A model generated the notes under the pieces. That model ran no database searches. It was not told where the DNA came from and worked only from the letters and a program-made list of their open reading frames with translations. From Escherichia coli (GTDB lineage: Bacteria > Pseudomonadota > Gammaproteobacteria > Enterobacterales > Enterobacteriaceae): DNA of 64,000 nt. The position numbers were made by a program, and so were the translations under genes. The stretch is taken from NCBI RefSeq assembly GCF_003991155.1, contig NZ_CP031293.1. One strand, 5' to 3'. Shown here piece after piece: positions 16,909-53,386 of the stretch; positions within the stretch are counted from its first letter, which is position 1, and each line of letters opens with the position of its first letter.

Positions 16909-17081
16909 GATGAGCATTCAGATAGTGGTTCACGCGCACGGGTTGCGCACCGCCGGAGTAAGGATTTACTGAGGCTAGCGACGCCATCATAACGAGCAAA
17001 AAGTGCGATCGTCAAAGAAGAATCGTGAGGAAATGCTGCATTGCTGACATTTACGCCAGCAATGCAGCGCAAAAGAACTTT

Positions 17082-18506: not shown

Positions 18507-18536
18507 CCCAATGAAATAACCACGCACCTCACTGCG

Positions 18537-19298
18537 CTATTCTGGGTTGAACTGCGGATTCGCCAACATAAAGCCGCCATCCACTATCAACGACCGCCCG
18601 GTGGTGTAATTTGCGCCCTCCGAACAAAGCCATACCACCAGACTGGCAATCTCATGCGTTGTGCCAAAACGTCGCAAGGGAATCGAAGGCTCCGCGTCGG
18701 GCTTCACATCGCCGTCATCCATGCCGTTCATTGGCGTGGCGATCGCCCCAGGTGCGACTGCGTTCACCAAAATTTTATGCCTGACCAGCTCCAGCGCCAT
18801 TGCTTTGGTTAACCCGCCGAGCGCATGTTTAGCGGCTGTGTAGGCGCTGGCATCCGGCAGCGGCGTATGTTCATGTACCGATGTAATGTTGATGATGCGA
18901 CCGCCCTGCCCTTGCTTCACCATCTGGCGGGCAGCAATTTGCGAGCATAAAAATGCACCATCGACATCAACGGTAAAAATCTTGCGCCACTCATCGAAAG
19001 CCATATCAAGAAACGGCGCTTTGGTCATTGCGCCCGCATTATTCACCAGCACATCAATACGCCCCAGCCGATGAATAAGTTTCTCCAGCGCCAGTGCCCC
19101 TTCTGGTAGATTGCCGAGATCCAGTTGCACGATCTCCGCACGTACGCCGTGGCTAACTACCTCACGCGCGGTATCTTTTGCCCCTTCTTCATCTGAGTGC
19201 CAGGTAATGCCAATATCAAACCCCTGCTGCGCCAGTAATAACGCGCACTCTTTGCCGATCCCCGAATCGGAGGCGGTAATTATCGCGACCTGTGCCAT
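18537..19298 (-). CDS. yohF: short-chain dehydrogenase/reductase YohF
   Basis: SDR N-terminus AIITASDSGIGKE; 253 aa. Confidence 0.85.
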   Translation of the reverse strand: MAQVAIITASDSGIGKECALLLAQQGFDIGITWHSDEEGAKDTAREVVSHGVRAEIVQLDLGNLPEGALALEKLIHRLGRIDVLVNNAGAMTKAPFLDMAFDEWRKIFTVDVDGAFLCSQIAARQMVKQGQGGRIINITSVHEHTPLPDASAYTAAKHALGGLTKAMALELVRHKILVNAVAPGAIATPMNGMDDGDVKPDAEPSIPLRRFGTTHEIASLVVWLCSEGANYTTGRSLIVDGGFMLANPQFNPE

Positions 19299-19350
19299 CG
19301 AGTTCTCCACTTAACGCTGAATAAATGTTAAGTATAGAAGGCGCATATCA

Positions 19351-20787
19351 TCAGCGTTTGTAACCTCCGCCCAGCGCACCGGTGAGTTGAATGGAGGCAT
19401 CCAGCCACTGCCCTTGCAATAACAGGCCATTGGCCCGCTCACGCAGCGCGGGGATTCTGGCTTCGCTGACGCGGGAACCAGCAATGATGCCCGCGTTAAA
19501 GCGCGCCTGCGCAAGACCTACCACACGCAAGGCATCGTGCTCAATTTGCGCCTGATGCTGGTTTTTCTCCGCCAGTGTCTGAACCTGGCTGGCCGCCCGC
19601 GCCACGTCATTTACCGCTTCAACCACCGCTTTGTTGTAGCTGGCGATAGACAAGTTGCTTTCGGCTTTTGCGATATCGAGATTGGCGTTAAGACGACCAC
19701 TATCGAAAATGGGTAGCGTCAGGCCTGCCGTAACGCCCATTTGCTGCGCGGAATGACGGAACAGATCGCTTAAGTGCAACGCATCCTGTTGCAGAAAGGC
19801 CATCAGGTTGATGTCAGGATAAAATGCCGCTTTTGCCGCATCAATAGTGCTTAACGATGACTCAACGTACCAGTGCGCCGCCTGCAAATCTGCCCGCCGG
19901 GCCAGTAAGGAGTACCCGAGTTCATCAGGAAGCTGACTTGCCACTTTCGGCAACGCGACCGGTTTAAGCTTCAATGACTTTGTCTGGTGGTTGGTGAGCG
20001 CACTTAACCGTGCCTCAATAATTTTCATTTTCCCCGCGACATCGTTGAGCTGCTGCCGGGTTTTGCTGGCATTAATATCGGTTTCCACACCTTCAACTGA
20101 AGAAGTAATCCCGTTCTGATATAGCTGGCGATCGGTCGCGATAATGGTGTTCTGCTCTTTTTCGATTTGCTGCAAGACCGTGTTTAACGCCGCCTGGGTT
20201 TGCCACTCCCAGTACAGGCGGGCTACGCTGCCAGCCAGCAATTGGCAGGTTTGCTCGCGTTCCGCCGCCCGTGCTTTAACCGTACCGAGGCGAGCAGTAA
20301 CCTCCGCCCGATTCTTTCCCCAGATATCGAGATGCCAGCCCGCCGTTAAGCCAAAAGTACCGTTGGTGTACCACGGACCGGTCGTACCTGCGGCAGGATC
20401 GTTCAGAGCAAACGGCCCCATTAACCCTTCTGCAGACATTTTTTGCCGCTCCATATCCGCAGAAAAGTCGATCTGCGGACCATCCTGAGTGGCAACTGCC
20501 TTCGCCTGGGCTTCAGCCAGCTGAATGCGCTGTTCAGCCACCTGCATATCCGGTGCGTTCTGTAGTGCATTGTTAATTAATGAAGTGAGTTGATTATCGT
20601 GATACTCCAGCCACCATTGGCTGTCTGGCCAACCATTTTTCAGCGCCGTGGGTAATGCGGTGTCAACTTGTGCCGCGGGTGTTTGCTGGCTTAACGCCTG
20701 GCGGGTTTCATGCATAGGCGCACACCCGGCCAGCATCAGTAACAGCGGAAAACAGGCGATGGCTGGATAAAAAGAATCACGATTCAT
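19351..20787 (-). CDS. mdtQ: outer-membrane efflux lipoprotein MdtQ (YohG), apparently intact
   Basis: Single 478-aa ORF from MNRDSFYPAIACFPLLLMLAGC (lipobox); OMF/TolC-like. Confidence 0.8.
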   Translation of the reverse strand: MNRDSFYPAIACFPLLLMLAGCAPMHETRQALSQQTPAAQVDTALPTALKNGWPDSQWWLEYHDNQLTSLINNALQNAPDMQVAEQRIQLAEAQAKAVATQDGPQIDFSADMERQKMSAEGLMGPFALNDPAAGTTGPWYTNGTFGLTAGWHLDIWGKNRAEVTARLGTVKARAAEREQTCQLLAGSVARLYWEWQTQAALNTVLQQIEKEQNTIIATDRQLYQNGITSSVEGVETDINASKTRQQLNDVAGKMKIIEARLSALTNHQTKSLKLKPVALPKVASQLPDELGYSLLARRADLQAAHWYVESSLSTIDAAKAAFYPDINLMAFLQQDALHLSDLFRHSAQQMGVTAGLTLPIFDSGRLNANLDIAKAESNLSIASYNKAVVEAVNDVARAASQVQTLAEKNQHQAQIEHDALRVVGLAQARFNAGIIAGSRVSEARIPALRERANGLLLQGQWLDASIQLTGALGGGYKR

Positions 20788-21010
20788 GGGGGAATAATCA
20801 GGTAAGAAAAGGTGCGCGGAGATTACCGTGTGTTGCGATATATTTTTTAGTTTCGCGTGGCAATACATCAGTAGCAATAAAACGACATATCCAGAAAAAT
20901 ATACACTAAGTGAATGATATCTTCCGATTTATCTTAATCGTTTATGGATAACGGCAAAGGGCTTCGTTTTTTCCTATACTTATTCAGCACTCACAAATAA
21001 AGGAACGCCA

Positions 21011-21094
21011 ATGAAAATTATACTCTGGGCTGTATTGATTATTTTCCTGATTGGGCTACTGGTGGTGACTGGCGTATTTAAGATGATATTTTAA
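21011..21094 (+). CDS. yohP: small membrane protein YohP (27 aa)
   Basis: Not in ORF track; ATG at 21011, encodes MKIILWAVLIIFLIGLLVVTGVFKMIF. Confidence 0.75.
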   Translation: MKIILWAVLIIFLIGLLVVTGVFKMIF

Positions 21095-21595
21095 AATTAA
21101 TTAATGTCATCAGGTCCGAAAATAACGAGAATAGTTCAGTCTCTCATCCTGTTGCGCTCCTGTCATGTGCATTGCTTCATATCATCACTGGCGCAAGGAG
21201 CGCGCAGGGGGCGGCCAGTCGCCGTCGCCCCCTGCACCCCCGGGCTCTGGCGAACAAAATCGCCGCTGCGCGGTACCCTCGGCTTATCCCTTGCTGCTAC
21301 CGGGTCGGGCGCGAGGTAACATATATGGACGCTCCCGGAATGCAATGCTTTCTTCAGTTATGTAATAAAACGGGTAGGTGCAGCCATATATCCGGTTTCT
21401 GATGGGATTTTTATCCCGAACCATGATGAAATCCGCCAGGCAGGTACCAATCATCCTCTACGGGCTAACTTGCCCTTGTTACCTCTCGGTGTATCCTGCC
21501 TGCGGTCTTACCTGTTTTGCCATCTTCTGAAGTCACCTGCACCTCCCAGGACGTTAACTTTTTTTCAGCACCTCGTCAGATTGACTGACCTTGTG

Positions 21596-22560
21596 TCAGG
21601 CGAGCTGCCGAGGTTGATATTCAGTATTGTGTGACAACATTGACCACATGATCCTCGCTGTTTTTGCCGCCATGGCGACAACAGCTACATTGTAGTGCTT
21701 CCGCTCAAGGAGTCCCTGAAGCCAGGAATTCTCCTCAACCGCGCCGTTTCGGTTGACCCAGGCGGTAAGTGCGCGTGCGCCGTGAACCAGCAGGTATCGG
21801 AAATATCCATCTCCACGTTTGCTGATCCCTCCCAGTTGCTGTTTCCCGCCGCTGGAATGTTCCTTTGGTGTCAGCCCCAGCCATGAAGCGAACTGCTTTG
21901 CGGTACTGAATTGTCGGGCATTACCCACTGCTGCTACCACATAAGTGGCCGTTAGCATGCCAACCCCCGGGATCTTGGCCATTCTCTGGCAGGCTTCCTG
22001 CGTTCTATACCAGGAGGCCAGAGCTTCTTCTACCTGTTTAACTTGTTCTTCAAGTTCCCGGATATGTTTAGACTGTCTGTAGATGCTGGTTCTGACAAAG
22101 GGAGATAAACCATTTTCGCCATCCTCCAGAATGGCTGGCAGCTCACGTGTTAAATGGCTTTGTCCGGCCGCAATCGTAATACCAAACTCAGCAAGTGTGG
22201 CTCTTAAACTATTGGCACAGGCAATCCGCTCACGGATAAGTATTCCCCGTTCAGTGTGTAACGCTAAAACGGCCTGCTGCTCTTCGGTTTTTATCTGAAC
22301 AAAACGCATATTCGGACGGGTTACCGCTTCGCAGATTGCTTCAGCATCTGCTGCATCCGTCTTGTTCGTTTTCACATAAGGCTTCACATACTGCGGAGGT
22401 ATGAGTTTTACCTCATGACCATAGCGGGTGAATAATCGCGCAAAATAATGACTGGATGAGCAGGCTTCCATGCCAATCAGACAAGGTTCCAGTTGAATCA
22501 CAAACTGAACAAACTTAGCCCGGGTGAGCTTTTTACGCAAAATAGTATGGCCTTCATGAT
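21596..22560 (-). pseudogene. IS110-family transposase, C-terminal ~320 codons (gene split by IS3 insertion)
   Basis: Matches IS1111/IS5075-type transposases (LIGMEACSSSHYF, VKTNKTDAADAEAICEA, LGGISKRGDGYFR). The first 16 residues of the ORF-track entry are read from the IS3 left inverted repeat and are artefactual. Confidence 0.8.
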
Positions 22561-23810
<1,250 letters not shown>

Positions 23811-23818
23811 CCACTACA

Positions 23819-23882
23819 GATCGACACCATGAAGCTGAAAAACGTTCTTTGCCAGGTCGATACCAAGAGTTGATACTTTCAT
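23819..23882 (-). pseudogene. IS110-family transposase, N-terminal 21 codons
   Basis: Minus-strand translation gives MKVSTLGIDLAKNVFQLHGVD, which joins in frame to HEGHTILRKK... once the IS3 and one GAT copy are removed. Confidence 0.75.
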
Positions 23883-24221
23883 GTGGACGCTCCTAATTTT
23901 TCAGGACGTATTGCAACGATCCAGTCTGGTACTTTGATACCGTAAAATCTGGAGCGTCCATCTCATTATCCCTGTAAAACGCGCCCTCAGCCCACATCCA
24001 TGTGGGCTGCCCCGCCCTTCAGGGAACGCCTCGGCGATTTTGACGCCACCAACACCGGTGCGGTTTGTAATTAAAGCGCAAGAACATCTTTAAATGAAAA
24101 CGAATACTCTACTGCTCCTTATGCATAACATTTCCTTTTAATTGCAACTTTACTCGTCCTTCCGCTTTCAGTAGTGTGTCATCGCGCATTTCGACTTCAT
24201 CTTTGCAAGGACTGGGTTTTC

Positions 24222-53288: not shown

Positions 53289-53367
53289 GCCACTGCTTTT
53301 CTTTGATGTCCCCATTTTGTGGAGCCCATCAACCCCGCCATTTCGGTTCAAGGTTGGTGGGTTTTTT
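53289..53367 (+). ncRNA. rybB: RybB small RNA (sigma-E-dependent, Hfq-binding)
   Basis: Recognised as RybB: GCCACTGCTTTTCTTTGATGTCCCC...GGTTCAAGGTTGGTGGGTTTTTT, ending in terminator hairpin plus U-run; lies in ybjL-rcdA intergenic region as in K-12. Confidence 0.85.
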
Positions 53368-53386
53368 GTTGTCTAAAATTTATCTA

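Follow-up and report, generated by a model that had tools for sequence, protein, structure and literature searches.

An intact mdtQ gene in an Escherichia coli strain lacking the K-12 frameshift, predicted to encode an orphan outer-membrane-factor lipoprotein

The window analysed here, a 64,000-base stretch of Escherichia coli DNA from contig NZ_CP031293.1, carries mdtQ (yohG) on its minus strand between yohF and the divergent gene yohP. The features at the locus are the following.

18537 to 19298, minus strand: yohF, SDR oxidoreductase, in the same orientation as mdtQ and 52 nt beyond its stop codon, from the annotation of a near-identical RefSeq genome
19351 to 20787, minus strand: mdtQ (yohG) coding sequence, 478 codons plus TGA, intact, with an ATG start, from the ORF list and the translation
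19537 to 19539, minus strand: codon 417, CAC (His), which is Arg in six other E. coli alleles
20245 to 20247, minus strand: codon 181, TGC (Cys), which is CGC (Arg) in six other E. coli alleles
20636 to 20640, minus strand: A5 run (TTTTT on the plus strand), gene nucleotides 148-152, codons K50-N51, the site of the K-12 lesion
20722 to 20733, minus strand: lipobox L19-A20-G21-C22, with Ala (A23) as the +2 residue
20722 to 20787, minus strand: lipoprotein signal peptide, codons 1-22, from the translation
21011 to 21094, plus strand: yohP, small membrane protein, divergent and upstream of mdtQ

The first-pass annotation had read positions 19351-20787 as a single 478-aa open reading frame with an intact lipobox. 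Both readings are borne out by the translation, the first also by the ORF list, and the strand is minus. The frame runs to a TGA stop at 19353-19351 with no internal stop across its 478 codons, and the product ends in ...GGGYKR. The program-made ORF list also holds a longer version of 508 aa (19351-20877), which starts at an upstream TTG. The ATG at 20787 is the start used in RefSeq (WP_001078122.1, 478 aa), and from this start the protein covers all 478 positions of the MdtQ model.

The N-terminus of the protein, MNRDSFYPAIACFPLLLMLAGCAPM, consists of a basic n-region, a hydrophobic core and the lipobox LAG followed by C22; the signal peptide and the start of the mature part can be written MNRDSFYPAIACFPLLLMLAGC/APM. 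We compared this region with a family alignment of 121 members, which was gathered from a search of 1.84 billion representative proteins. The lipobox Cys column is kept in 120 of the 121 aligned members, and the three columns before it hold L, then A/S/T, then G/A/S. MdtQ thus has the lipobox Cys and a residue other than Asp at +2 that mark a lipoprotein, and its lipidation is predicted on this basis.

Profile searches assign the protein to MdtQ. The NCBIfam equivalog model NF008524 scored 1022.1 bits against a cut-off of 650, aligning residues 1-478 of the protein with positions 1-478 of the 478-position profile. The NodT subfamily model TIGR01845 was passed as well (271.9 bits, cut-off 210.05), and Pfam OEP PF02321 matched two stretches of MdtQ with an E-value of 5.7e-30. 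Two other identities were tried and rejected. The MdtP model NF007390 aligned over 17-477 at E 3e-106 and reached 355.9 bits, below its cut-off of 597, so the window protein is a paralogue of MdtP and not MdtP itself. The TolC subfamily model TIGR01844 gave 53.9 bits against a cut-off of 225.15, the superfamily fold being the same and the subfamily not. MdtP (YjcP), the outer-membrane subunit of MdtNOP, represents the closest E. coli paralogue family and is likewise a NodT-type lipoprotein, but mdtP lies within an operon with adaptor and pump genes whereas mdtQ stands alone (PMC11762307). TolC of E. coli (PDB 1EK9), unlike MdtQ, is not a lipoprotein, and the two share only about 12-13% identity.

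At the nucleotide level, the window mdtQ is 100% identical to the annotated mdtQ of strain 2016C-3878 (WP_001078122.1), whose genome differs from the whole 64,000-base window at 2 bases, and 96.9-98.1% identical to the gene in most E. coli. MdtQ/YohG of O157:H7 (WP_001078131.1), also 478 aa long and encoded at the same yohF-mdtQ-yohP locus, differs from the window protein at 4 residues. UniProt Q8X659 is the MdtQ entry that was modelled in the review PMC11762307.

Among solved structures, the closest relative by sequence is VceC of Vibrio cholerae (PDB 1YC9), with an E-value of 1.6e-38. VceC, OprM, CusC, SilC, CmeC, OprN and MtrE share their fold and domain order with MdtQ, and sequence E-values for the solved lipoprotein channels range from 1.6e-38 (VceC) to 4.7e-19 (MtrE), at an identity of only 18-25%. 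MdtQ shares with them the conserved LPIFxxG motif and, at the C-terminus, the ALGGG motif. The solved channels have established partner pumps (VceAB, MexAB, CusBA and others), whereas the literature names none for MdtQ (PMC11762307).

An AlphaFold2 model of the MdtQ monomer was obtained with a pLDDT of 90.6 and a pTM of 0.87. It contains four beta-strands (105-116, 139-153, 325-336 and 348-357) and two long helical hairpins (158-224/230-265 and 365-431/437-471) with periplasmic turns at 225-229 and 432-436, the same arrangement as in the protomers of VceC, OprM and CusC. A Foldseek search of the PDB with this model returned CmeC, VceC, CusC, OprN, OprM, SilC and MtrE with E-values of 1e-21 to 1e-24 and TM-scores of 0.75-0.88, and TolC with an E-value of 1e-14. 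These predictions support the view that MdtQ can fold as an outer-membrane-factor protomer.

By analogy with the family, the signal peptide would be cut before Cys22 and Cys22 would become lipidated, and Ala at +2 would direct Lol sorting to the outer membrane. With four beta-strands and long helical hairpins from each protomer, a trimer would then form a 12-stranded beta-barrel pore, continued by a periplasmic alpha-helical tunnel. By docking to a periplasmic adaptor, this tunnel may serve as the exit duct of an inner-membrane pump. Because mdtQ stands alone, the partner pump would be encoded elsewhere.

The order yohF-mdtQ-yohP is the same in MG1655 and in the six other genomes inspected. 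Homology to K-12 is unbroken from 18528 to 21322 of the window, at 97.5%, a collinear stretch that takes in the 223 nt between mdtQ and yohP. The annotated neighbours of mdtQ include no adaptor or pump gene. No terminator-like site was found on the minus strand between mdtQ and yohF, and the two genes are possibly co-transcribed, as far as their arrangement indicates. No recognisable Shine-Dalgarno sequence precedes the mdtQ ATG within 15 nt (...CTGATTATTCCCCC-ATG). A promoter and terminator scan of 19100-21400 yielded two promoter-like sites and two that resemble terminators, a yield not above that of shuffled sequence. An Rfam scan of the whole window returned only three matches, none of them relevant to mdtQ: the Peptidase-S11 cis-regulatory motif at its expected place upstream of pbpG (16913-16993, minus strand), the sRNA RybB, also at its expected place (53292-53370, plus strand), and isrC, an Hfq-binding sRNA (22629-22751, plus strand, 145 bits). 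The isrC match lies on the 5' end of an IS3-family orfA and probably reflects a family defined on such an IS fragment instead of a separate sRNA gene.

Beyond yohP, the window leaves the K-12 gene order. The K-12 order holds up to window position 21322 (K-12 2,229,293), 535 bp upstream of mdtQ, and collinearity resumes at 23968 on the lysO (ybjE) side, at K-12 915,111 running downwards. From this break and resumption it follows that the window spans one junction of a terminus-centred inversion of about 1.31 Mb, which sets lysO (ybjE) beside yohP-mdtQ. The junction and the IS elements in it leave mdtQ and its upstream region untouched. Its parts are listed here.

21144 to 21322 and 23968 to 24063: hybrid TRIP1 repeat, left end TRIP1c-like and right end TRIP1a-like
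21323 to 22560 and 23822 to 23967: IS110-family element of 1,384 bp inside TRIP1
21596 to 22609, minus strand: IS110 transposase ORF, 337 aa in RefSeq, with a GTG start
22561 to 23818: IS3-family element of 1,258 bp with an IS911-like orfA, interrupting the IS110 element

The IS110-family element splits the hybrid TRIP1 at an AT dinucleotide (...GGTAACAT/ATCC...). The IS3-family element has inverted repeats TGTAGTGG/CCACTACA and a 3-bp target duplication, GAT. Its insertion has cost the IS110 transposase its first ~20 codons, among them the one for the catalytic Asp of GIDLAK, and the Pfam DEDD_Tnp_IS110 match begins at profile position 19 instead of 1. With these 5' codons gone, the 337-aa protein recorded in RefSeq as 'IS110 family transposase' represents a truncated and fused ORF whose GTG start is artificial. 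In relatives such as WP2-W18-ESBL-08 the transposase gene is intact, at 341 aa.

This inversion is known in SMS-3-5 and IAI39, where it has been credited to recombination between the 270-bp repeats TRIP1a and TRIP1c (PMC10888264), and the same terminus inversion is mentioned in a replication fork trap study. We found it in 85 complete genomes, the mdtQ-side junction carrying an IS110-family element in all 85: 52 have the IS110 element alone, SMS-3-5 and IAI39 included, and about 33 have IS110 plus IS3 as in the window. A lysO-mdtQ junction without IS was found in 0 of 5,426 complete genomes. The reciprocal aqpZ-dusC junction is likewise present in 85 genomes. Among the 60 of these listed, 59, the window strain included, hold another copy of IS110 at the matching position of TRIP1 (2681917-2683300 in the near-identical genome NZ_CP029747.1), the lone exception being KFu014, with a clean, empty aqpZ-dusC site and a single AT. 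CE10 has an IS in TRIP1a without the inversion. The two IS110 copies are 99.6% identical and in inverted orientation, offering 1.4 kb of homology versus 0.27 kb for TRIP1, and the inverted IS copies are at least as likely as TRIP1 to have been the substrate of the inversion. The pattern suggests that the recombination joined two inverted IS copies and not just the 270-bp repeats, and the genomes that bear the inversion could go back to one ancestral event. TRIP1a and TRIP1c are near-identical over their central ~200 nt, and the crossover is not placeable within the repeat. An earlier survey noted inverted repeats with transposase genes at the ends of many E. coli inversions (PMC5372343).

Further into the window, between ybjP and ybjQ, the annotation of the near-identical RefSeq genome places a pseudogene for a pentapeptide-repeat protein without its C-terminus (35261-36499; NZ_CP029747.1 1342545-1343783). 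To our knowledge, the K-12 gene order has no pentapeptide-repeat gene at this place.

The statement in the first-pass annotation that mdtQ is a disrupted pseudogene in K-12 proved correct: in MG1655 (NC_000913.3), mdtQ (b2139) is annotated as 'pseudogene' with 1436 bp. In a K-12-type O16:H48 genome, mdtQ is identical in sequence to that of MG1655 and noted as 'frameshifted', and a 2025 paper on YohP names the K-12 neighbour of yohP 'the mdtQ pseudogene'. The pairwise alignment with the K-12 locus that had been proposed as a check was run on b2139. The two genes are 97.6% identical and differ by 33 substitutions and one indel, the only K-12 change that breaks the frame: one A is lost from GAAAAAT, reducing the A5 run to A4. 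The window has A5, and the same frameshift is absent from it. The MG1655 locus is orthologous, and the A4 lesion belongs to K-12, not to the window. Past the lesion, the K-12 frame continues as ...ALKMVGQ... until a stop at codon 70; another frame, which lacks a signal peptide, holds the other 436 codons.

Because the K-12 protein with its missing A restored differs from the window protein at only 3 of 478 residues, the K-12 loss looks like a recent single hit; the sequence comparison points to such an event, in which K-12 would have lost the gene by a single-base deletion in the A5 run at codons 50/51. A programmed or slippage-based rescue of the K-12 frameshift was considered and rejected on reasoning from the sequence, as CTG-AAA-ATG is no slippery heptamer and a run of four A's is too short for slippage in transcription.

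The distribution of intact and broken alleles was assessed with 60- and 61-mers spanning the K-12 site, with the net length of the gene in a sample of 40 genomes and with five full translations. Of 5,426 complete E. coli genomes, 5,420 have mdtQ, and 5,390 have it over at least 80% of its length. The exact A5 61-mer of the window occurs in 4,585 of 5,407 genomes, those without it mostly having nearby SNPs. The exact K-12 A4 60-mer occurs in 355 of 5,403, and its carriers among the 60 matches listed are K-12 laboratory derivatives (MG1655, W3110-type, DH5alpha, DH1, C600, J53, NCM3722 and similar). In an evenly spaced sample of 40 hits, 37 were exactly 1437 bp long, 2 were K-12-type with 1436 bp, and 1 was cut by IS1 (STEC379). 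All five sampled non-K-12 genomes (O157:H7, O25b:H4, O111:H8, a broiler isolate and a canine isolate) have an unflagged 478-aa mdtQ that translates without stops. By these counts, some 85-93% or more of sequenced E. coli, the window strain included, would never have carried the K-12 lesion. An intact mdtQ is the species norm and K-12 the exception. This is already known, and a 2025 review treats K-12 as the exception for mdtQ (PMC11762307). Independent stop codons in mdtQ are reported from some isolates of Salmonella Typhi and Paratyphi A (PMC9241588). Taken together with the K-12 frameshift and the IS1 truncation in STEC379, mdtQ is dispensable and has been lost repeatedly.

Against six other E. 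coli alleles, the window mdtQ has 23-38 synonymous and 3-6 non-synonymous differences, with dS values of 0.07-0.12 across phylogroups and dN/dS values of 0.029-0.051, a range indicative of purifying selection. Two of its residues, Cys181 and His417, are lineage-specific substitutions (R181C and R417H) among the alleles compared. An exact 61-mer with TGC at codon 181 is found in only 42 of 5,395 genomes, and the Cys181 lineage is widespread, with isolates from humans, cattle, poultry and wastewater. Both positions are variable in the family: column 181 holds R in 48, E in 21, A in 15, K in 12 and Q in 11 of the 121 members, with S also occurring, and column 417, highly variable, holds A in 31, D in 14, Q in 11 and E in 11, besides G, R, T and K. 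Residue 417 is aligned with Q in VceC and with K391 in OprM, and at both sites these two channels have residues other than those of the window protein. In the model, residue 181 sits in the middle of helix 158-224 and residue 417 on helix 365-431, some 15 residues above the turn 432-436.

The window gene is thus very probably an ordinary intact mdtQ, encoding the precursor of an orphan NodT/TolC-like outer-membrane-factor lipoprotein and free of the K-12 lesion. A different account, in which the open reading frame is intact and the gene silent or decaying, an orphan channel with little or no expression that has been kept only for want of time, would agree with the region before the ATG, where neither a Shine-Dalgarno-like sequence nor a promoter signal above chance was seen, with the want of an adjacent adaptor or pump gene, with the independent losses in K-12, STEC379 and Salmonella Typhi and Paratyphi A, and with a function described as 'not elucidated' (PMC11762307). 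Neutral drift, however, is unlike a dN/dS of 0.03-0.05 at a dS of 0.07-0.12, and a gene that is present in 5,420 of 5,426 complete genomes and full-length in 5,390 of them does not fit decay either; we consider this account improbable. That the allele is in frame and nevertheless impaired, by R181C as a second cysteine in a periplasmic protein together with R417H, is less probable again. The six other E. coli alleles have neither change, only 42 of about 5,400 genomes hold the Cys181 allele, and Arg is the commonest family residue at column 181 (48 of 121). Yet the variability of both columns, the different residues of VceC and OprM, the position of both sites on long helices away from the turns 225-229 and 432-436, and the persistence of the allele in a widespread lineage all speak against it, and a strong concern that conserved residues had been hit was rejected on the grounds that both columns are variable and both sites lie away from the helical turns.

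A one-base homopolymer difference from K-12 is a classic site of sequencing error, and the apparent intactness could in principle reflect a wrong homopolymer length in the assembly of a strain that truly has the K-12 frameshift. Against this stand the identical A5 61-mer in 4,585 independent complete genomes, the 100% identity of the whole gene to an independent RefSeq record, and the A4 allele, which among the matches listed occurs only in K-12-type genomes; such an error has a vanishingly small probability. The earlier suggestion that this strain retains a functional copy is supported with reservations: the gene is intact, has no K-12 lesion and keeps each of the family features examined, but 'retains' overstates the case, intactness being the species norm. 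That the copy is 'functional' is inferred from its intactness and from the signature of purifying selection.

[quoted passage not shown] Such a phenotype would be puzzling if the strain was K-12, whose allele is already frameshifted. It is conceivable, although we think it rather unlikely, that intact MdtQ is a working alternative exit duct in natural E. coli whose substrate and pump have been overlooked since efflux genetics is mostly done in K-12. If so, strains with the intact allele would show TolC-independent export that is impossible for K-12. In this lineage, assembly or gating could be changed further by R181C, which puts a second cysteine into the periplasmic tunnel.

The lesion in K-12 mdtQ is now pinned to one base (A5 to A4, codons 50/51), and the pseudogene label holds for K-12 only. 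As a reference for mdtQ, K-12 serves poorly, and studies of outer-membrane exit ducts in K-12 rely on a strain in which one of the four E. coli channels is missing. A search for the partner or the substrate of MdtQ needs a strain with the intact allele, or a K-12 strain in which the single missing A has been repaired.
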